Positions 2,094 to 22,750 of a stretch of 37,431 bases of DNA are shown here, one piece after another. The stretch is from the NCBI GenBank assembly GCA_046095145.1, contig JBJTIV010000118.1:1-37431 (forward strand), written 5' to 3'. Each line of letters starts with the position of its first letter. Position 1 is the first letter of the stretch. The DNA comes from Planctomycetaceae bacterium. GTDB taxonomy: Bacteria > Planctomycetota > Planctomycetia > Pirellulales > UBA1268. A program made the position numbers and the translations under genes. The notes beneath the pieces were generated by a model. That model saw only the letters and a list, made by a program, of their open reading frames with translations, did no database searches and was not told where the DNA came from.

Positions 2094-2528
2094 TCAACGA
2101 GGCGGCCGCGATCGCGGCGTGGACGACCCCGGGTCCATCATGATGTGCAGCAAAATCGCCGTGGCAAGCAACGCCAGGTAAAAGGCCACCAGCAGGCCGC
2201 CGGCGCCCGCCTCGCGGAGGGAGCGGCCCTGCGCCGCGAGCCAGACCAGCGCGGCGAGGCCCGGCACCACCCGCAGCACCGTCGCCCCGAGCGCCGAGCC
2301 GCCGCGCCGCGCCGGGTCCACGGTCGCGCGGCGGGCGACGATCCAGCCGCCGATGCCGCCTGCGCCCGCGACCAGCGCCGCGAAGGCCACGGCCCGTCCC
2401 CAGAGCGGCCGGCCGGTCCCCGCCGCCAGGGCCACGGCCACCGCGCCGCCGAGCACGCCGGCGAGCACGATCGTGCCGAGGACGGTGTCGCGCGCGGCCC
2501 GGGCGTGCGGTGCCGGGGGCGTGCTCAC
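2094..2528 (-). CDS. atpI: ATP synthase protein I-like small membrane protein
   Basis: The 144-aa protein has about four hydrophobic segments and lies immediately upstream of atpB. Its GTG start overlaps the stop of the preceding gene (GTGA), which suggests translational coupling. The call rests on position and hydropathy only. Confidence 0.6.
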   Translation of the reverse strand: MSTPPAPHARAARDTVLGTIVLAGVLGGAVAVALAAGTGRPLWGRAVAFAALVAGAGGIGGWIVARRATVDPARRGGSALGATVLRVVPGLAALVWLAAQGRSLREAGAGGLLVAFYLALLATAILLHIMMDPGSSTPRSRPPR

Positions 2529-2743
2529 GGTGCGCGCCTCCCGCGGCTCAGGCTGACGAGCCAGGCGAGGGCCGTCGTGAACCCGATCACGAAGCCGACC
2601 GGGCCGAGCACCCTGGTGCCCAACCGCTCGTCGAGCCAGCCGCCCGCCACGCCGGGCAGGAACATCGTGAGGCCGATGGCCATGATCCGCGAGGCCCAGG
2701 CCATGGCCTCACCGATCGGCGATTCGGATGGAGTGCGGGGCAT
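2525..2743 (-). CDS. AtpZ/ATPase_gene1-family small membrane protein, first gene of the atp operon
   Basis: The 72-aa protein has two TM segments. IGLTMFLPGVAGGWLDERLGTRVLGPVGFVIGF matches the G..G.wLD..lgT signature of the AtpZ family, and the gene sits at the head of the atp cluster. Confidence 0.6.
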   Translation of the reverse strand: MPRTPSESPIGEAMAWASRIMAIGLTMFLPGVAGGWLDERLGTRVLGPVGFVIGFTTALAWLVSLSRGRRAP

Positions 2744-2749
2744 GGTGCT

Positions 2750-2755
2750 AGGATA
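2750..2755 (-). promoter_or_regulatory. -10-like hexamer TATCCT, 6 nt upstream of the atpZ ATG (candidate leaderless promoter); reads TAGGAT on the plus strand towards corA
   Basis: It is a rare AT-rich hexamer in a GC-rich context. The spacing to ATG 2743 fits a transcription start at or next to the start codon. I found no clear -35 element. Confidence 0.3.
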
Positions 2756-2786
2756 CCGCACCGACATTCCACCGGGGTCGCTCGCC

Positions 2787-3878
2787 GTGTCGCAGCGCAA
2801 ACGCCGCCGCCGCCGCCCGCGCGACCGCGATCTCGCCGGCTCGATCGCCGCGGCGACGAAGCCCTCCGGCCCGCCGGCCACCCTGCGGCTGGTCGCCTGC
2901 GAGGGGCAGGCCACGCACGAGTCGGTGGTGCAGCGGCCGGAGGACCTTGCCGCGGTGCGGGAGAAGTGGCCCGTCATCTGGCTCGACGTCGAGGGGCTCG
3001 ACGATCTGGCCACGATCCGCTCCATCGGCCAGACCTTCGGGATCGGCGACCTGGCCCTCGAGGATGCGATCACCCCCGACGAGCGGCCCAAGGTGGAGGT
3101 CTTCGGCCACCAGCTGCTGATCGCCGTGCGGATGGCCCGCTACGACGGCGAGACGCTCGTGACCGACCCGATGGCGATCTTCCTCGGCGACCGCTCGGTG
3201 ATCACGTTCCACGACCGCTCGAGCCACGACGGCTTCGAGGGGGTCCGGCAGCGGATCCGCCAGCATCGCACCCGGATCGGCGAACTCGGGGCGGACCACC
3301 TCTGTGCCCTGCTCCTCGACGCGGTGATCGACGGGTATTTCCCGGTGCTCGAGCGGTTCGGCGACCGGCTGGAGGACCTCGAGGAGGAGGCCCTGGAAAC
3401 GCCCAGCCGCCGCACGCTGGCCCGGATCCACGACGTCCGCAACGACCTCATGACGCTCCGGCGGGCCCTCTGGCCCACCCGCGACGTGCTCCACGCACTG
3501 GGCCGGGAGTCGACCGCCTTCGTGGGCGACCATGCCCGCCAGCACTTCCGCGACTCCTACGACCACACGATGGAACTGCTCGACCTCATGGAGGGCTACC
3601 GCGAGATCGGCAGCGACCTTCGCGACATCTACCTGGCGAGCATCAACAACCGGATGAACGACGTGATGAAGGTGCTCACGGTGATCGCGACCGTGTTCAT
3701 GCCGCTGACGTTCATCACCGGCTACTACGGCATGAACTTCCACACCGATTCGCCCTGGAACATGCCGCTGTTGCGCTTCCGCTACGGGTCGCTGGTGGCG
3801 GCGGGGATCATGGTGGCGACCACGCTGGGCATGGTGTATTTCTTCTGGCGCCGCGGCTGGCTGAAGCGTTGGCACTGA
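2787..3878 (+). CDS. corA: CorA-family magnesium/cobalt transporter
   Basis: The gene shows VFMPLTFITGYYGMNF (GMN motif), two C-terminal TM helices, and an N-terminal cytoplasmic domain collinear with CorA. The start is uncertain. I prefer GTG 2787, which lies 35 nt after TAGGAT. ATG 2742 would overlap the divergent atpZ ATG within CATG. Confidence 0.88.
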   Translation: MSQRKRRRRRPRDRDLAGSIAAATKPSGPPATLRLVACEGQATHESVVQRPEDLAAVREKWPVIWLDVEGLDDLATIRSIGQTFGIGDLALEDAITPDERPKVEVFGHQLLIAVRMARYDGETLVTDPMAIFLGDRSVITFHDRSSHDGFEGVRQRIRQHRTRIGELGADHLCALLLDAVIDGYFPVLERFGDRLEDLEEEALETPSRRTLARIHDVRNDLMTLRRALWPTRDVLHALGRESTAFVGDHARQHFRDSYDHTMELLDLMEGYREIGSDLRDIYLASINNRMNDVMKVLTVIATVFMPLTFITGYYGMNFHTDSPWNMPLLRFRYGSLVAAGIMVATTLGMVYFFWRRGWLKRWH

Positions 3879-3991
3879 CTGTACGGCGGGCTCGGGCATC
3901 CTGCCCTCCCCGCCTGAGGAGCGGCCTCCAGCGAAGCCGAGGTTCGCTTCGGCCGCGGGCGGCCATCGTGGCCGCCACGCACAGCGGGCTC

Positions 3992-4125
3992 GGGGCTGCC
4001 CACGCCCTCTCGCCGGACGTTCGCTGCGGGCATCCATGCCCTTCGCTCACTCGGAGGTGTCTGCGCTCTCGCCCTCCGGGCTCCGCTGGCCACCTACGCC
4101 GGCTCTCAGGGCAATGGGCAACCCC
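3992..4125. repeat. Copy A of a ~130-nt structured palindromic intergenic repeat
   Basis: The termini GGGGCTGCCCA and TGGGCAACCCC are inverted. The element aligns end to end with 8407..8539 and 21701..21830. It contains internal hairpins at 4028..4041 and 4071..4081. It lies between the convergent 3' ends of corA and the ROK kinase. Confidence 0.85.
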
Positions 4126-4165
4126 GCACCTCCCGCAGACGCACAATGCGCTCGCGCGAGCCGCG

Positions 4166-5194
4166 TCACAGGCCGCGTTCGCGGACGAGGCGGGCCGCGT
4201 CGAGGGCGGCGCCGCGGGCGCCGGCGCTGTCGCCGGCCGGCATCACGTGGATCGGCAGCGCGGCCTGCTCCTCGCGCTGCGTCGGCATGAAGGCCCGCAC
4301 CTCGGCGAGAAACCAGTCGCGGAAGGCCCCCGAGGCCTCCATGAGGCCGCCCCCCACCAGGAGCGCGTCGGGATCGAACACGTTCACCATCTCGTCGAAG
4401 AAGAGCCCCAGGGCCTGCGCCTGCACCCGGAAGATCTCGCGGCACATGGCATCGCCGCGGTCGGCGAGGCCGCGGACCCGCTTGGCCGCCTCGCCCACGT
4501 CGGCCTCGGCGGCGAGCGGATGGCCCGGGTGCCGGGCCAGGAAGTGCGGGAGGAGCGACTGGCGGATGGCCGTCAGCGAGCACAGCGACTCGAGGTCGCC
4601 CACGCGGCCGCAGTTGCACCGCGGCACGAGCCCCTCGATGCCGGGAATGGCGGCGTGGGGGATGAGCACGTGGCCGAGTTCGCCGCCGAAGCCGTTGCGG
4701 CCGGTCACGACGCGGCCGCCGCTCACGACGCCGCCGCCCAGGCCGGTGCCGATGATCGCCGCCACGCTCGTGGCGTCGTTCTCCGAGCCGAAGATCGAGA
4801 CGTGGCCCCACAGCGCGGCGGCGTTGCCGTCGTTGAGGTAGGTGACCGGCATGCCGAGCCGGCTCTCGAGCGCCCCGCGGACGTCGAAGCCGGCCCACCC
4901 CGGGTGGACGAAGTTCGTGGCACCCCGCCGGCTGAGCCCGCCGGCCGCGCTCGCCGGGCCCGGCGTGTCGCGTCCGGCGGCCACGACCTTCGCCAGCGGC
5001 ACGTGGGCCTGCGTGGCGGCCAGTGCCAGTCCCGCCTCGATCTGGCCGAGGCAGGCCTCGGGCCCGTCGACGCTCCTGGCCGGATGCTCGCACAGCCCCT
5101 CGATGAGGAACTGCCCGCGCTCGTCGAGGAAGGTGTAGTTGATCGCCGTGCCGCCGAGGTCGATGCCGGCGACGAACCTGTCAGCGGGTGACAT
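4166..5194 (-). CDS. ROK-family sugar kinase (glucokinase-like)
   Basis: The N-terminal IDLGGT ATP-binding motif, GTGLGGG, the GELGH...CNCG zinc motif and an ROK-typical length of 342 aa support the call. GGGAG lies upstream of the ATG. Confidence 0.88.
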   Translation of the reverse strand: MSPADRFVAGIDLGGTAINYTFLDERGQFLIEGLCEHPARSVDGPEACLGQIEAGLALAATQAHVPLAKVVAAGRDTPGPASAAGGLSRRGATNFVHPGWAGFDVRGALESRLGMPVTYLNDGNAAALWGHVSIFGSENDATSVAAIIGTGLGGGVVSGGRVVTGRNGFGGELGHVLIPHAAIPGIEGLVPRCNCGRVGDLESLCSLTAIRQSLLPHFLARHPGHPLAAEADVGEAAKRVRGLADRGDAMCREIFRVQAQALGLFFDEMVNVFDPDALLVGGGLMEASGAFRDWFLAEVRAFMPTQREEQAALPIHVMPAGDSAGARGAALDAARLVRERGL

Positions 5195-6561: not shown

Positions 6562-6707
6562 GGCTCCAACTCCTGCGTGGCGTGCGGCCACCACGACCGT
6601 GGAATCCTAGGCACCTGCCCCCCACCCTGCAACGCTCGGCGGTGCGGCGCGGGCATTTTGCTACCATCGTCGCGACCGCCACGTTCCCCGGAGCCGACAC
6701 GCGAGCC

Positions 6708-8381
6708 ATGGGCGCAGCCTTCATCTTCCAGATCGCGAACCTGACGAAAAAGTTCGGCCAGCGCGAGCTGCTCAAGAACATCAACCTGGCCTTCTATCCC
6801 GGGGCCAAGATCGGCCTGCTCGGCCGCAACGGCGCCGGCAAGAGCACGCTCCTGAAGATCATGGCGGGCATCGACCGCGAGTACGACGGCGAGGCCCGGC
6901 TGGCCGACGGCTACACCGTGGGCTACCTCGAGCAGGAGCCGCGGCTCGATCCGGCGAAGACCGTGTTCGAGAACGTGATGGACGGCGTGGACCACGCCCG
7001 CGCGGTCCTGCGGCGCTATGAGGAGATCAACGCCCGGTTCGCCGAGCCCCTCGGCGAGGCGGAGATGGAGAAGCTGCTCGCCGAGCAGACGGCCGTGCAG
7101 GACGAGATCGACGCCAAGAACCTCTGGGACCTCGACCGCCAGGTGGAGATCGCGATGGATGCGATGAACCTCCCGCCGGGGGACTGGGGCGTGGCAAACC
7201 TCTCCGGCGGCGAGCGGCGGCGGGTGGCCCTGTGCCGGCTGCTGCTCGAGAAGCCCGACCTGCTGCTCCTCGACGAGCCCACGAACCACCTCGACGCCGA
7301 GAGCGTGAACTGGCTCGAGCGCCACCTCGCCGAGTACGCCGGCACGGTCGTGGCCGTCACGCACGACCGCTACTTCCTCGACAACGTGGCGAAGTGGATC
7401 CTCGAGGTGGACCACGGCCGCGGCATCCCCTTCGAGGGCAACTACTCGTCGTGGCTCGAGCAGAAGAAGAAGCGGCTCGAGCTCGAGGAGAAGCAGGCCA
7501 GCGCCCGCCAGAAGACGCTCGACAAGGAACTGGAGTGGGTGCGGATGTCGCCCAAGGCCCGGCAGGCCAAGAGCAAGGCCCGCATGGCGGCCTACGAGAA
7601 GCTCGCCGCGGAGCAGGCCGCCGTGCGGGACCAGGACATCGAGATCTTCATCCCCGCCAGCCGGCCGCTCGGCGACCAGGTGATCGAGGTCGAGAACATC
7701 TCCAAGGCCTTCGGCGACAAGCTGCTGTTCGAGAACCTCTCCTTCCGCCTGCCGCCCGGCGGCATCGTGGGCATCATCGGCCCCAACGGGGCGGGCAAGA
7801 CCACGCTGTTCCGCATGCTCGTGGGGGCCGAGAAGCCCGACTCGGGCACGATCCGCGTGGGGGCGACCGTCGACATCGGCTACGTCGACCAGAATCGCGA
7901 CGCCCTGCACGCGGACAAGACCGTCTTCGAGGAGATCTCCGCCGGCCACGACACGATCGAGCTCGGCAAGCGCACGGTCAACGCCCGCAGCTACGTCGCC
8001 AAGTTCAACTTCATGGGGCCCGACCAGCAGAAGAAGGTGGGCACGCTGTCCGGCGGCGAGCGGAACCGGGTGCATCTCGCGAAGCTGCTCCGCGGCGGCG
8101 CCAACCTCCTGCTCCTCGACGAGCCGACCAACGACCTCGACGTGGACACCCTGCGGTCGCTCGAGGAGGGCATCGCCCACTTCGCCGGCTCGGTCGTGGT
8201 GATCACGCACGACCGATGGTTTCTGGACCGGCTGGCCACGCACATCATCGCCTTCGAGGGGGACGGCTACGTGCACGTCTGCGAGGGCAACTTCGAGGTC
8301 TACGAGCGGAGCCGCAAGGAGCGGCTGGGCATGGCCGCCGACGAGCCGCACCGCTTTCGCTACAAGAAGCTCACTCACTAG
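6708..8381 (+). CDS. ettA: ABC-F translation factor EttA
   Basis: The 557-aa protein has two ABC cassettes (GRNGAGKST and GPNGAGKTT Walker [17 protein letters not shown] signatures). It is collinear with EttA from the start ([35 protein letters not shown]) to the end. Confidence 0.93.
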
Positions 8382-8406
8382 CGTCACGACCGTAGCAAGG
8401 CCGTTC

Positions 8407-8539
8407 GGGGCCGCCCAGGCCCCGTCGCCGGACGTTCGCTGCGGTCCTCCGGACCTTCGCTCTCTCGGAGGCGTCTGCGCTTCGCCATCCCTGGCTCCGC
8501 TGGCCGCCTACGCCGGCTCTCAGGGCTATGGGCGACCCC
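8407..8539. repeat. Copy B of the ~130-nt structured palindromic repeat
   Basis: The termini are GGGGCCGCCCA and TGGGCGACCCC. Hairpins lie at 8443..8455 and 8484..8495. It has the same order and orientation as copies A and C and sits just after the ettA stop. Confidence 0.85.
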
Positions 8540-8785
8540 TCACTGCGTCGACTCCCGTTCGGGAGCGAAGGCGGGGGGCTCGGGACGAGGATGCGGAGCA
8601 CGCGGCGCTTCGCCGCAGCGAACGCAACTCGTACCGGCCCGTAGCCGAGCGGTTTGGGCTCTGTGACGCCGCAACGAACCGGTCTGGTTTGCCCGCGGGA
8701 TACCCTCGTGCGTAGCAGTCTGCCGCTGTGGGCAGGGGATGCGGCGGCGGGGCTCGAAAGCGGAGCCGGCCGCGAGGGTCTTCCC

Positions 8786-8977
8786 ATGCTCAATCGCAGC
8801 GCCGTCGTCGTCGGCCACGAGCCGGCGTTCATCGGCTGGCTCAAGACCACCGGCGTGTCCGCGGAGCGGATCGCCGAACTCGAGCGCTTCCACGACCGGA
8901 CCGTCTCCCTGATCCCGGGCTGCCACCACCCCGAGGAGCTCGAGGAGGTCGCCGAGGCGGCGACCCCGGTGGGCTGA
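8786..8977 (+). CDS. Small hypothetical protein (63 aa) overlapping the 3' tail of ispH convergently
   Basis: The translation is MLNRSAVVVGHEPAFIGWLKTTGVSAERIAELERFHDRTVSLIPGCHHPEELEEVAEAATPVG. GC3 is about 95% in this frame, and GAGGG lies 12 nt upstream of the ATG. I recognise no family. Confidence 0.45.
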   Translation: MLNRSAVVVGHEPAFIGWLKTTGVSAERIAELERFHDRTVSLIPGCHHPEELEEVAEAATPVG

Positions 8978-9935
8978 CCGGACAGGCCATCGGCCGCCGC
9001 ACGGCCGCGGCGGCCGCCCGCAGCTCCTTCGGCAGCGGGAAGTAGACGTCCTCCGCGCGGATCGTCCGCTCCTCGACCGCGGCGCCGTAGCGGTCGCGGA
9101 GCCATGCCAGGCACTGCTGCACGACCGTTTCCGGGGCGCTCGCGCCGGCCGTCACCACCACCGTCTCGTCGCCCCGGAACCAGGCGGGGTCGATCTCATG
9201 GGCACCGTCGATCAGGTGTGCACGAATGCCCCGCTCGCGGCCGAGTTCGGCGAGCCGCTGGCTGTTGGAGCTGTTCTGACTGCCCACCACGAGCACCACG
9301 TCGGCGGCCTCGGCGAGGATGCGGACCGCCTCCTGGCGATTCTGCGTGGCATAGCAGATGTCGTCCTTGGGAGGGCCGACGATCTGTGGAAACCGCTCCC
9401 TCAGCCGGCTGATGATCCGCGCCGCATCGTCGACCGAGAGGGTGGTCTGCGTGAGGTAGGCCAGGCGATCGGTCGGACCGTAGGGCAGCGCGTCGACGTC
9501 CTCCGGCGTCTCCACGAGCGTGAAGGCGTCGGGGGCCTGGCCGATCGTACCGATCACCTCGTCGTGCCCCTCGTGGCCGATGAGCATGATCCGATAGCCC
9601 TGCGAGGCGTACTTGATCGCCTCGAGATGCACCTTCGTGACGAGCGGGCACGTGGCGTCGATGGCCCGCAGCCGCCGCTCGGCCGCGACCCTGCGCACCT
9701 CGGGAGCCACCCCGTGCGCGGAGAACAGGAGCACGGCTCCTTCCGGCACCTCCTCGACCGCGTCGACGAACACCACCCCCTCCTTGACGAAGCGGTCCAC
9801 GACGTGCTTGTTGTGCACGATCTCGTGGAATACGTAGATCGGCGTGCCGTGGAGCCGGATGGCGGTCTCGAGCGTCTCGATCGCCATGTTGACGCCGGCG
9901 CAGAAGCCGCGCGGGCTGGCGAGCAGGATCTTCAT
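8841..9935 (-). CDS. ispH: 4-hydroxy-3-methylbut-2-enyl diphosphate reductase
   Basis: MKILLASPRGFCAGVNMAIE..., HEIVHN, ATCPLVTKVH and SSNSQRL are IspH motifs with the three cluster Cys. Homology ends near VYFPLPKELR (about 9010). The frame then stays open for about 55 Pro/Arg/Gly-rich residues until 8841. Confidence 0.9.
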   Translation of the reverse strand: MKILLASPRGFCAGVNMAIETLETAIRLHGTPIYVFHEIVHNKHVVDRFVKEGVVFVDAVEEVPEGAVLLFSAHGVAPEVRRVAAERRLRAIDATCPLVTKVHLEAIKYASQGYRIMLIGHEGHDEVIGTIGQAPDAFTLVETPEDVDALPYGPTDRLAYLTQTTLSVDDAARIISRLRERFPQIVGPPKDDICYATQNRQEAVRILAEAADVVLVVGSQNSSNSQRLAELGRERGIRAHLIDGAHEIDPAWFRGDETVVVTAGASAPETVVQQCLAWLRDRYGAAVEERTIRAEDVYFPLPKELRAAAAAVRRPMACPVSPPGSPPRRPPRAPRGGGSPGSGRRSGRGSARVRRSAPRTRRWS

Positions 9936-20476: not shown

Positions 20477-21664
20477 ATGCCCGTCCTCGACTGGATCAGC
20501 CGCCGCGTCTTCGACGCGGTGCACCGCAACAACCTGGTCTACAACACCTGCTGGGAGGATCCACGGCTCGATCGCGAGGCCCTGCGGCTCGGGCCCGCGG
20601 ACGACATCGTCGTGATCACGTCGGCGGGCTGCAACGCCCTCGACTACGCCCTCTGCGACCCCCACCACGTCCACGCGGTGGACATGAACCCGCGGCAGAA
20701 CGCGCTGCTCGACCTCAAGCAGGCCGGCATCCGGGGGCTCGACTTCGACGAGTTTTTCCGAATGTTCGGCGAGGGGCGGCTGCCGGGTGTGCGGCGCGTC
20801 TACCAGCAGAAGCTGCGCGGACTCCTGCCCGAGCCGTCGCGCGGCTTCTGGGACGCGAAGATCTCCTGGTTCGACAACCCGCGCTGCAGCTTCTATTTCC
20901 GCGGCACGTCGGGCCTGTTTGCGCGGATGGCGAAGGCCTACACCGACCGCGTGATCAAGGTCCGGCCGTACCTCGAGCAGCTCGTCGAGGCGCAGAGCGT
21001 GGAGGAGCAGCGGGAGATCTGGCAGCGGCACCTGCGGAACCGGTTCACCGGGCTGCTGCGGTTCGTGCTCAACCGCGACACGACGATGGCGTTGCTCGGC
21101 GTGCCCCTGGCGCAGCGCCGGCAGATCGAGGCCACCTATTCCGGCGACCTGGCCCGGTTCGTGCAGGAGTGCCTGCAGGGCGTGATCGCCGACCTGCCGA
21201 TGCGCGACAACTACTTCTGGCGGGTCTACATCAACGGCGCCTACGCGCCGGCCTGCTGCCCGGAATACCTCGTCGAGTCCAACTTCGACCGGCTGAAGGC
21301 GGGTCTCGTCGACCGCGTGACCACGCACACCGACTCGGTGCAGGGATTCCTCGAGAAGCACGATCGGCCGGTCAGCCGCTTCGTGCTCCTCGACCACATG
21401 GACTGGCTCCGCGACCGGTTCTTCCCGTTGCTCGAGAGCGAGTGGCAGGCGATCGTGGACCGGGCCGCTCCCGGGGCCCGGCTCATCTGGCGGAGCGGGG
21501 GCTTCAACAGCGATTTCGTGAAGGAGGTCCGCGTCACGGTGGACGGGCGGCAGCGGCTGGTGGGCGACCTGCTGGAGTTCGACGACGACCTGGCGAAGCG
21601 GCTCCACCCGCTCGACCGCGTCCACACCTACGGCTCGTTCACGATCGCACGGTTCAAGGGCTGA
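20477..21664 (+). CDS. BtaA-like (DUF3419) S-adenosylmethionine:diacylglycerol 3-amino-3-carboxypropyl transferase family protein
   Basis: The 395-aa protein shows LVYNTCWEDPRLDREAL, VITSAGCNALDY and DHMDWL, which match my recollection of the BtaA/DUF3419 family. It starts 14 nt after ilvD. Confidence 0.7.
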   Translation: MPVLDWISRRVFDAVHRNNLVYNTCWEDPRLDREALRLGPADDIVVITSAGCNALDYALCDPHHVHAVDMNPRQNALLDLKQAGIRGLDFDEFFRMFGEGRLPGVRRVYQQKLRGLLPEPSRGFWDAKISWFDNPRCSFYFRGTSGLFARMAKAYTDRVIKVRPYLEQLVEAQSVEEQREIWQRHLRNRFTGLLRFVLNRDTTMALLGVPLAQRRQIEATYSGDLARFVQECLQGVIADLPMRDNYFWRVYINGAYAPACCPEYLVESNFDRLKAGLVDRVTTHTDSVQGFLEKHDRPVSRFVLLDHMDWLRDRFFPLLESEWQAIVDRAAPGARLIWRSGGFNSDFVKEVRVTVDGRQRLVGDLLEFDDDLAKRLHPLDRVHTYGSFTIARFKG

Positions 21665-21700
21665 GTTTTCACGGCACACGCGTGATAGCCCAACCGGCTC

Positions 21701-21830
21701 GGGGCTGCCCACACCCTCTCGCCGGACGCTCGCTCCGGTCATCCTGACCTGCGCTCGCTCGGAGACGTCTGCGCTTCGGCATCCTGCCTGCGCTGGCCGT
21801 CTACGCCGTCTCGAGGGGATGGGCAGCCCC
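21701..21830. repeat. Copy C of the ~130-nt structured palindromic repeat
   Basis: The termini GGGGCTGCCCA and TGGGCAGCCCC are a perfect 11-nt inverted repeat. Hairpins lie at 21737..21749 and 21778..21788. It sits between the convergent 3' ends of the btaA-like gene and the secreted-protein gene. Confidence 0.85.
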
Positions 21831-21841
21831 TCGCCGGCGCG

Positions 21842-22750
21842 TTACCGCGAGCCCGGCACGGGGAGCGACTCGATCGGCACCGCCGGGCCCGGGGCGATGA
21901 CGGCCCCGGGAGGCAGTTGCTCCGGCGGGATCGGAACGCCGTAGACCGGACCGGGCGTGACCGCCGGCGCCGCCGCGGCCCCGGATGGCGCGACGCCGTC
22001 GGGGGGCTGGTAGTAGGGCTCCGGCTGCGCGAGCGGCGCCACGCCGAGCTTGGCCAACAGCCGTGAGAGCATCTTCTGTTCGAGGAGCGGGTCGCGGCCT
22101 TGGGGGATCCACCCCATGTTGGGCGTGGGCGCGGCCACGGGCCGCGGCTGGTCGCCCACCTGCTGGCCGAGCGTGGGCAGCGGCGTGCCGTAGCGGTAGA
22201 GCGAGTCGTCGTTGCGGAACGAGGCGCCGCCGGTCGTGGCCCGCATCGGGCGGGCGAGGTATTCGAGCTCCTTGTTCACCACCACCTCGATCCGCCAGCC
22301 GCCCGGGTCGGGGATGAGCCGCATGGTGCCGATCCGGCGGATCGACTGGAGCGTGGCCTCCCAGCGCTCGTCCCAGCCCACGGAGTCGCCGCGCCAGGGT
22401 TCGAGGATCGTGGCGCCGGTCTGCGGGAAGGTGTCGATGCGGCCCTCGGTCGGCACGCCACCGGAGAACACGACCCGCTGCTCGGAGTGGATCTTGAAGA
22501 AGTCGTCGCAGACGTCGACCATCTGCGTCCACACCTGTTCCGCGTCGAGCGCCGGGATCACCGCGGAGCTGCGGGGTACGGCCGGCAGCGGCGCCACCAC
22601 CGGGCCGGCCGGGCCGGGGACCGTGCCCTCGGGCAGCGGCACGAACGGGTTGGCCTGCGGGACCGCCGCGGGAGCCGGCAGGGGCTCCTGCGCGCGGCCC
22701 GTGACGGCGAGCGCCGCGAGCACGGTCACCAGGCTCGCCATCCGGGCCAT
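21842..22750 (-). CDS. Secreted hypothetical protein with Pro-rich termini
   Basis: The signal peptide is MARMASLVTVLAALAVTGRAQE. The central region has high GC3 and a globular composition. I recognise no family. Confidence 0.7.
   Translation of the reverse strand: MARMASLVTVLAALAVTGRAQEPLPAPAAVPQANPFVPLPEGTVPGPAGPVVAPLPAVPRSSAVIPALDAEQVWTQMVDVCDDFFKIHSEQRVVFSGGVPTEGRIDTFPQTGATILEPWRGDSVGWDERWEATLQSIRRIGTMRLIPDPGGWRIEVVVNKELEYLARPMRATTGGASFRNDDSLYRYGTPLPTLGQQVGDQPRPVAAPTPNMGWIPQGRDPLLEQKMLSRLLAKLGVAPLAQPEPYYQPPDGVAPSGAAAAPAVTPGPVYGVPIPPEQLPPGAVIAPGPAVPIESLPVPGSR

Follow-up and report, generated by a model that had tools for sequence, protein, structure and literature searches.

Three Copies of a Structured Repeat Between Convergent Genes

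The window is a stretch of 37,431 nt, contig C118 of a Pirellulales MAG (assembly of 2.95 Mb in 481 contigs, 72% GC, 83% complete), and carries three copies of a non-coding repeat unit of ~135 nt. Codon-usage gene calls place all three in spacers between convergent genes. Copy A (3986-4129) lies between genes 2145-3878 (+) and 4166-5194 (-), copy B (8401-8543) lies 22 nt past the stop codon of ettA (6642-8381, +), which is convergent with gene 8841-9935 (-), and copy C (21695-21834) separates genes 20477-21664 (+) and 21842-22750 (-). All three are assigned to the minus strand, the folded and constrained strand being the complement of the window plus strand. They score 120-137 bits against a covariance model of the family, with E-values of 1e-21 to 5e-25 (copy A, 126.8 bits, 5.5e-23; copy B, 119.9 bits, 1.2e-21; copy C, 137.4 bits, 5e-25). 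A counterpart of copy B occupies the same place in the same orientation in L126. The original prediction of three collinear copies is borne out on the plus strand (3988-4128, 8403-8542, and 21697-21834; mean column identity 85%), and the terminal inverted repeat, the conserved core and the two small hairpins whose stems differ between copies yet stay paired are present as described.

Covarying Watson-Crick column pairs, picked by mutual information over 117 complete copies, describe a three-way junction made up of a long closing stem (P1 and P2), an arm P3 and a second arm in which P4 encloses P5. P1 is an 18-bp terminal stem, P2 pairs GCCGG with CCGGC, and the two arms are tipped by TCC loops (GGA on the complement). 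Two hairpins and the terminal stem had been predicted correctly, whereas the long-range helix P4 had been missed, and it is this extra helix that makes the fold a three-way junction.

In copy A the 5′ arm of P1 (3992-4008) pairs with its 3′ arm (4108-4125), and the stem so formed is interrupted by a single bulge and includes two C.A positions, each of them G.U when read on the minus strand; both arms were placed from the copy A sequence and family-wide pair counts (consensus columns 4-21 with 119-136). P2 (GCCGG at 4012-4016, CCGGC at 4099-4103) is nearly invariant and closes the junction. P1 and P2 are set apart by a tandem mismatch, T.C/C.T on the plus strand and G.A/A.G on the minus strand, whose columns are 100% conserved. 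Arm P3 (4019-4049) ends in the apical hairpin GGGCA-TCCA-TGCCC (4028-4041) and contains conserved internal Y.Y mismatches; it is defined by column pairs 42-50 (CG 58, GC 43, TA 14), 41-51 and 44-48. The long-range helix P4 joins 4052-4059 (CGGAGGTG) to 4091-4098 (CACCTACG) through covarying columns 64-108, 66-106, 68-104, and 69-103. Within it, arm P5 (4064-4086) carries the apical hairpin GCCC-TCC-GGGC (4071-4081), where column pairs 82-91 and 84-89 covary. By eye the layout of P5 is that of P3, which suggests an internal duplication.

Covariation and Invariant Unpaired Bases

RNAalifold recovers the same three-way junction from an independent alignment of 81 sequences from ~78 species, with 32 of 40 pairs compensated. 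When a 46-pair structure is scored over the 81 sequences, 95.6% of cells are paired, compared with 82.8% in shuffles and 30-41% with slid partners. Double changes affect 33 of the 46 pairs and amount to 436 doubly changed cells against 115 expected, a level reached by none of 500 shuffles; each measure of covariation exceeds all 500 shuffles and all slid controls. Double changes are found in 16 of 17 pairs of helix 1 (P1) and in all nine pairs of helix 3 (P4), and helix 2 (P2) is 93.8% paired. The compensatory change noted in the three window copies is thereby confirmed. Copies and their nearest neighbors, at least 88% identical, differ by 131 double changes that are fully compensated and by 98 pair breaks. 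These 131 changes are distributed over P1 (54), P3 (31), P4 (23), and P5 (23), and short-range palindrome correction cannot account for all of them. Ectopic gene conversion among copies could mimic part of the compensatory signal.

The most conserved part of the repeat is its unpaired mismatch and loop columns, which are 99-100% conserved. Some of these columns make up tandem T.C/C.T mismatches, found at three points along the stems, and the others form the TCC loops and the symmetric internal loops of the two arms. This analysis supports selection on the repeat family for a folded single strand. A hammerhead-like core was considered by eye (CCGAGUGAG...GCGAAC in the repeat, CUGAUGAG...CGAAAC in the ribozyme) and rejected: the spacing differs, columns 35-86 and 36-85 covary, and there is no score with a hammerhead model.

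The Constrained Strand

Pairing is constrained asymmetrically. Among non-Watson-Crick deviations read on the window plus strand, A.C outnumbers G.T by 153:33 in this genome and by 120:34 among recent differences between nearest-neighbor copies; in other species, read on the minus-sense strand, G.U exceeds A.C by 130:19 (p = 1.6e-21). The wobble-pair bias is thus 4-7:1 toward the complement of the window plus strand, and since the deviations on the minus-sense strand are G.U-compatible, it is this complement that is under pairing constraint. The original guess that the minus strand matters gains support from these counts, both here and elsewhere. Predicted stabilities run the same way: copy A has a minimum free energy of -80.8 kcal/mol (z -5.3) on the minus strand and -68.4 kcal/mol (z -3.0) on the plus strand, and the three copies range from -79 to -81 kcal/mol (z ~-5.2) and from -68 to -73 kcal/mol (z -2.7 to -3.9), respectively. 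Read on this constrained strand, the conserved mismatches are tandem G.A/A.G, and the loops show GGA, embedded in CCAGGAUGG. The two GGA-loop sites of this minus-sense strand lie ~45 nt apart, and their orientation to genes is random.

A Large Family Restricted to One Genus

An iterated nhmmer search of the 2.95-Mb genome returned 167 matches to the repeat family, ~125 of them near full length, with 88 on one strand and 79 on the other. The claim that the window copies belong to a repeat family therefore holds far beyond chance. No two of the 117 complete copies are alike; their pairwise identity has a median of 79%, and identity to the nearest neighbor a median of 92%.

With the covariance model, the repeat was detected in every one of the 36 genomes sampled from the same GTDB genus, and 24 genomes representing other families of the order gave no match. 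Most genomes of the genus hold at least 53 copies, and a few only 4-30. Searching a species-level genome collection with a 20-mer from the core matched more than 118 stretches; 107 of 118 such loci carry the repeat, and without exception these 107 belong to Planctomycetota/Pirellulales MAGs from fresh or brackish water, some of which are evidently mislabelled. Matches of the 20-mer in Streptomyces, Micromonospora, and other non-planctomycetes are due to chance, as is the single 20-mer match that might have indicated carriage by a phage. Rfam 15, which the original prediction had proposed to consult, was searched with the window and with copy A without a meaningful match: there were no matches in the window at gathering thresholds, and a permissive scan of both strands of copy A (E up to 10) returned only chance matches with E of 0.12 or higher. 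The repeat family is new, and it is restricted to one uncultured Pirellulales genus.

Placement Relative to Genes

The repeat is strictly intergenic, none of the 117 full copies overlapping a called gene. Excluding 35 copies at contig edges, 28 occupy convergent, 50 tandem, and 4 divergent spacers, and this placement differs from that of the background spacers of the genome (312 convergent, 1352 tandem, 334 divergent; chi-square p = 3e-6). The repeat is enriched at the 3′ ends of genes and depleted in divergent spacers, which bear promoters; the median distance from the upstream stop codon is ~30 nt. Non-random placement at gene ends, proposed from three loci, accordingly extends to this whole genome. 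The original prediction had also noted that each copy follows the stop codon of a plus-strand gene in the same orientation. This is true of the three window copies and fails genome-wide, where copies in tandem spacers divide evenly between the two orientations to neighboring genes (25 same, 25 opposite); given the lack of preference, the shared orientation in the window is a coincidence. Orientation is likewise unbiased with respect to local GC skew, used as a proxy for replication (47:42), and to local gene strand. No protein families were found to recur beside the copies.

The even split weakens any strand-specific role within neighboring mRNAs, including that of a CsrA sponge in 3′ UTRs, and the random orientation makes the strand asymmetry hard to ascribe to a role inside those mRNAs. 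A single-stranded intermediate, of DNA or RNA, that would be read during copying or correction is the better fit to this asymmetry.

Gain and Loss, Inverted Dimers and an Insertion Sequence

Comparison of orthologous sites shows gain and loss of the repeat. The spacer downstream of ettA contains it in ~16 of 80 related species and lacks it in the rest, and the post-ettA copies stand at varying distances, ~11 facing one way and 4 the other. Many of the post-ettA spacers without the repeat have in its stead a simple hairpin that shares its apical motif, CCATCC(N)TGG. The joined flanks of several copies match relatives contiguously, so that empty sites exist. The exact junction between empty and filled states could not be read at any of 10 orthologous loci compared with relatives, the divergence of the spacers between species being too great for alignment. 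Flanking direct repeats of 2-8 bp show no excess over shuffled flank pairs (76 copies, several offsets tried); a constant TC on both sides is inseparable from the sequence of the element itself.

The search for a mobilizing enzyme covered linked transposases, recurrent neighbor genes, and flanking RAYTs, and found none by these routes. Y1_Tnp (PF01797) was not found in this 83%-complete assembly, nor were Y1 genes found in three genomes of the genus that are each 97% complete and hold at least 53 copies (G016, G020, and G036). Y1_Tnp-like ORFs are present in 17 of 36 genomes of the genus, and the eight Y1 loci examined have no repeat within ~2 kb. An autonomous parent lying between repeat ends ~2 kb apart was sought at four places (C42, C73, C274, and C100) and rejected, the interiors being unrelated ordinary genes.

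When full copies are adjacent, they form inverted dimers. All 14 such pairs have the order “+ then -” with their 3′ ends facing, and the reverse order does not occur (p = 1e-4). The linkers measure 29-32 nt in seven cases and 53 nt in three, are partly conserved, and share CCCCGAGCCTTCCTC...AGGCGAG. Dimer partners are only 69-80% identical to each other and therefore belong to different subtypes. The repeat has a BIME-like mosaic organization, with alternating subtypes and fixed linkers.

This genome also contains an excess of repeat fragments that keep the column-1 end, and tandems of a fragment (columns 1-40) followed by a full copy are present. A SINE-like retro-mobility suggested by the excess has been largely withdrawn, because many of the fragments are repeat halves beside a hairpin-targeting insertion sequence (IS) or contig breaks. 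This IS, traced from the column-1 fragments, is 1.55 kb long, encodes a DDE_Tnp_1 transposase, and has the ends AATCCTGTTCGGCAC. Four contigs of this assembly are broken by it, and 13 of 37 genomes in the genus contain it. Of 19 further IS copies, 16 have an end directly beside the P3 hairpin of a repeat, in either orientation, and the others have it beside stand-alone hairpins of the same type. The IS itself holds a full repeat copy between the transposase gene and its right end. As its ends are unrelated to those of the repeat, and as it is absent from most repeat-bearing genomes, it is regarded as a parasite or user of the repeat and not its parent. No autonomous IS sharing the repeat termini was found among these MAGs, from which IS interiors may be missing.

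How Might the Repeat Be Maintained?

These features are best explained by a non-autonomous and unusually elaborate REP/BIME-like interspersed repeat that is spread or maintained via a single-stranded form recognized by a putative protein, a reading to which we give a probability of about 60%. Of the roles considered in the original prediction, the REP/BIME-like element is the one that fits best, given the inverted dimers with fixed linkers and the targeting by an IS. Copies would multiply or be homogenized through a single-stranded intermediate (ssDNA or RNA), and a trans-acting protein encoded elsewhere may recognize the junction together with the conserved unpaired bases. Under selection for recognition by such a protein, the fold would keep its stems paired and its loops invariant, and copies would persist downstream of genes, where the harm they do is presumably small. 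When transcribed, in either sense, the very stable hairpin probably acts as a barrier at RNA 3′ ends, as in E. coli REPs, which would be a secondary effect on the host. The unpaired bases deviate by 1% or less despite 21% overall divergence, and this could also reflect purifying selection in place, for a host function and not for selfish spread.

Could the host function instead be primary? If the repeat were a bidirectional transcript-end structure that terminates or insulates transcription and protects mRNA 3′ ends, selection would act locus by locus and mobility would be historical only. The enrichment in convergent spacers, the short distance to the upstream stop codon, and the depletion in divergent spacers speak for this, as does the high stability of either sense (-68 to -81 kcal/mol); in related species the same post-ettA position is taken by a simple hairpin that has this apical motif, and by eye none of the three window spacers has a canonical T-tract terminator. 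Yet only ~9% of convergent spacers (28/312) hold a repeat, and most orthologous ettA spacers lack one, so the repeat is dispensable at any given locus. A role of the stem only, with transcription in both senses, would moreover leave the invariant unpaired bases, the three-way junction, and the 4-7:1 asymmetry unexplained. Nor does the repeat have the form of an intrinsic terminator, a GC-rich hairpin with a U-tract directly after it: P1 is followed by CCCCTCGC(T/G) on one strand and by CCCCGAGCC on the opposite one, and as there is no T-run in either, a U-tract is absent on both strands. We consider a primary role at transcript ends unlikely. The GGA loops raise a different role in RNA, in which two CAGGAUG-type hairpins of a putative minus-sense transcript would bind CsrA, either as a CsrB/RsmZ-like sponge dispersed over more than 100 loci or in the control of mRNAs. 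The CsrB repeat is CAGGAUG, and CsrA sites follow a GGA-in-loop rule. The hairpin tips CCAGGAUGG match both, GGA is what the loops read on the strand singled out as constrained by the G.U asymmetry, the bases of these loops hardly vary, and this genome has four csrA genes. Against this, the 25:25 orientation in tandem spacers means that half of the copies would be transcribed in the wrong sense, a sequence logo of the flanks has no conserved motif and so gives no sign of a shared flanking promoter, and stand-alone hairpins with the same tip favor the UCC sense downstream of genes. Nor does csrA follow the repeat: the sampled Pirellulales genomes have 2-13 csrA genes each (1 in a half-complete MAG of the genus), and the repeat-free genomes of other families mostly have more (4-13, with 6-13 in sister families and 2 in one incomplete genome), so that csrA is equally or more abundant where the repeat is absent. 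The resemblance of the GGA loops to CsrA sites is real and finds no other support; binding of CsrA to the repeat is speculation, and a dispersed CsrA-binding RNA appears decidedly improbable as an explanation of the family.

Two routes of mobility by known enzymes have also to be weighed. As a classical MITE, the repeat would be an internally deleted derivative of a DDE IS, mobilized in trans via its 17-18-bp terminal inverted repeats. Such repeats are indeed present, as are a length of ~135 nt, a high copy number, presence/absence polymorphism, and a DDE IS in physical association. The option of a miniature mobile element, raised in the original prediction, finds neither a signal of target-site duplication (TSD) nor an IS with matching ends: flanking direct repeats of 2-8 bp in 76 copies are not above those of shuffled pairs (a constant “TC” on both sides is possible), and the associated IS has ends (AATCCTGTTCGGCAC) unlike the repeat termini, inserts next to P3, a hairpin internal to the repeat, and was found in 13 of 37 genomes of the genus, all of which have the repeat. 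The internal helices and unpaired bases are also constrained beyond the needs of a substrate recognized by terminal inverted repeats only, and a MITE origin is very unlikely. The other route is movement as ssDNA by a RAYT or another HUH Y1 transposase of the genus, in the manner of a REPIN. A fold constrained on one strand, conserved irregularities in the stems, the lack of TSDs, and inverted dimers are hallmarks of Y1-transposase substrates (IS200/IS605, REPINs), all of them have counterparts here (for TSDs, the lack of a signal in 76 copies), and Y1_Tnp-like ORFs are found in 17 of 36 genomes of the genus. The enzyme, however, was not found in this genome (83% complete) or in the three 97%-complete genomes with at least 53 copies, the eight Y1 loci have no repeat within ~2 kb, orientation is unbiased against the replication proxy, and the termini (GCTCGGGG...CCCCTCGC) carry no GTAG or CGTC tag. 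A Y1 transposase of the genus is accordingly a most improbable mover.

A bolder reading would see in the repeat more than selfish DNA. Throughout the lineage it could serve as a structured module of RNA or ssDNA that has a protein partner of its own, acting as more than 100 two-site GGA decoys or handles for the multi-paralogue CsrA system of Pirellulales, or as the substrate of a new structure-reading mobilization enzyme that is not a RAYT; we hold this doubtful. Were the mobilization-enzyme version true, the three-way junction with its tandem G.A pairs would be the recognition fold, and the repeat-carrying, hairpin-seeking DDE IS would exploit the same fold.

With many diverged copies per genome in dozens of species, the family is a very clean data set. 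The branched fold, the invariant unpaired bases, and the strand asymmetry point to a specific single-stranded recognition event; the partner protein can therefore be sought directly, and whether such repeats are selfish, domesticated, or both can be put to the test. There are practical consequences as well: in this abundant genus of freshwater planctomycetes, MAG assemblies are broken up by the repeat and by its targeting IS, and the covariance model can serve both for annotating the genomes and for recognizing members of the genus.

Comparison With Known Systems

Among structured RNAs, the CsrA-sequestering CsrB and RsmZ resemble the repeat, whose constrained strand likewise has GGA in short hairpin loops, within CAGGAUG-like words. 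They are, however, sRNA genes in single copy, with promoters of their own and many GGA sites, whereas the planctomycete repeat is dispersed, has two sites, gives no sign of a promoter, is randomly oriented, and does not co-occur with csrA. Integron attC sites are also imperfect palindromes (60-140 nt) situated just past ORFs, in which the structure and unpaired bases of one strand outweigh sequence. The core sites R′′ and R′ of attC are RYYYAAC and GTTRRRY. Judged by eye against this consensus, the termini of the repeat have no R′/R′′ boxes. Cassette arrays are absent, each copy standing by itself among core genes, ettA being one example, and an attC identity was rejected.

Correia/NEMIS, RUP, and other bacterial MITEs are, like the repeat, small, non-coding, and abundant, and they too end in inverted repeats. 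They have TSDs, and a parent IS shares their ends; here neither a TSD signal nor such an IS was found, the ends of the associated IS being unrelated. ERIC (IRU) and pneumococcal BOX elements are modular imperfect palindromes of ~100-200 nt. Like the planctomycete repeat they are intergenic, keep their sequence across species while their locations differ, and have no mobilizing enzyme encoded alongside. There is no sequence similarity between them, the planctomycete repeat having no match to any known family, and a branched, strand-specific fold is far better evidenced in the planctomycete repeat; ERIC is reported to insert at TA, whereas no TSD signal was seen in 76 copies here.

To our knowledge, repeats of the REP/BIME/ERIC type have been studied nearly only in Proteobacteria and Firmicutes, and the spread of several is still unexplained. 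The REP, BIME, and REPIN elements of Enterobacteria and Pseudomonas differ from the planctomycete repeat in being simple stem-loops of 20-40 nt, where the latter is a 135-nt three-way junction with invariant unpaired bases, and in the REPIN-RAYT association, the planctomycete repeat having no GTAG/CGTC tag and no flanking or co-occurring RAYT. Both are high-copy extragenic palindromes that follow genes in either orientation and avoid promoters, both form inverted doublets of two subtypes with fixed linkers, and in both compensatory changes keep the hairpin. The REP/BIME elements of E. coli are targets of IS1397 and IS621, and the planctomycete repeat is likewise the preferred target of a specific IS.

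The Insertion Sequence and Variant Copies of the Repeat

An insertion sequence (IS) of 1.55 kb, whose ends read AATCCTGTTCGGCAC and whose DDE_Tnp_1 transposase is 403-413 aa long, is associated with the repeat and occurs in 13 of 37 genomes from the genus. Its insertion point directly adjoins hairpins of the GCC-ATCC-GGC type, mostly P3, one of the two hairpin arms of the repeat's three-way-junction fold (the other being P5). A complete copy is found at L227:265-1831 (L-numbers denote stretches from relatives' genomes), and in G000, the window's own genome, the IS lies on contigs C42 (4013-4140), C100 (2001-2128), C74 (1-135) and C331 (7492-7650); the G000 assembly is broken by it at four places. 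A full 135-nt copy of the repeat is also carried inside the IS, between the transposase stop codon and the right end (L227:1643-1783, L228:1233-1373, L232:1244-1385 and L233:1738-1880), and its relative place is identical in the IS copies of four species.

Variant forms of the repeat were also encountered. In a recurrent “restart” layout in G000, a full copy is preceded, at a distance of 0-5 nt and in matching orientation, by just the initial 36-42 nt of another copy, whose remainder is absent downstream (e.g., C400:5898-6077, C12:2957-3130, C414:1013-1195 and C421:3341-3513). In some copies (L125:4254-4411, L128:4385-4546, L239, L251, and L252) the tip of P3 or P5 is replaced or extended by a module of ~27 nt, GACCAATCCGCCTGCGGCGGATCGGTGCC, which is either an arm of variable length or a nested mini-insertion.

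Hairpins and Spacers Outside the Repeat

Two more hairpins, GCGAAGCCGAGGTTCGCTTCGGC and GGCGGCCATCGTGGCCGCC, lie at window 3930-3975, past the stop codon at 3878 and ahead of copy A of the repeat. The tip of GGCGGCCATCGTGGCCGCC is related to CCATCC(N)TGG, the motif carried by the arms of the repeat. Genome-wide, G000 has 44 stand-alone hairpin sites outside the repeat, defined by a stem of at least 7 bp and the repeat's apical motif, [GC]C[AC]TCC(N)[TG]G[GC] (e.g., C391:6257-6274 and C105:927-955). In these hairpins TCC tends to fall on the strand that is sense for the gene upstream (19 vs 5 on the 5' side), and two sequences, GTCGCCGCATCCTGCGGCGGC and ACGGGCATCCTGCCCGT, have 5 occurrences each. 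Stand-alone hairpins of this kind are likewise present at ettA 3' ends in L123, L128, L136, L137, L138, L145, L148, and L164.

The relatives' spacers downstream of ettA hold further repeat families (L124:4200-4560; L131, L135, L140, and L145). One is a tandem array of ~41 nt, GTAGCGCGGGTTTCCAA.CCGCGGCTGGGTTCCTGCCCTTC; others are the hairpins GGCCGCAGGTTTTCAACCTGCGG, which stand on both sides of the repeat in L140, and CCCGGGTT.CCACCCGGGG. In G000, a motif GGAAGCCCCACGCGC...GATGGTGCGCG is also recurrent in the flanks of repeat copies.

The spacer that follows copy B (window 8545-8700) is ~80% conserved in one other species when compared with L126:4405-4560, even though other spacers are unalignable, and reads GGGAGCGAAGGCGGGGG..CTCGGGACGAGGAT...GCGGCGCTTCGCCGC...AACTCGTACCGGCCCG.AGCCGAGCGG.TTGGGCTC. 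The stretch may correspond to a leader or 3' element, or encode a small RNA, beside the ispH-like gene.

Genome Labels and csrA Copy Number

Several metagenome-assembled genomes (MAGs) with the repeat are titled Candidatus Kuenenia, Chitinophagaceae/Chitinophaga or Planctomicrobium piriforme (L002, L044, L045, L066, L068, L087, L090, L135, L146, and L159, among others). Their EttA is 88-92% identical to that of the window, and they are probably mislabelled members of the window's Pirellulales genus. A separate observation concerns G026, a different species representative, in which 200 nt (C43:38222-38421) are 100% identical to G000 contig C344; among the matches listed, other G026 stretches matching G000 are 83-88% identical. 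The identical segment may reflect cross-binned contigs or recent transfer.

The csrA gene is multi-copy across the order (61 Pirellulales genomes sampled). Genomes of the window's genus mostly carry 3-5 copies, with fewer in very incomplete MAGs, and those of other Pirellulales families mostly 4-13; the G000 genes lie at C355:10685-10840, C13:1449-1604, C396:7645-7791 and C322:1533-1703. This regulator is notably expanded in Pirellulales.
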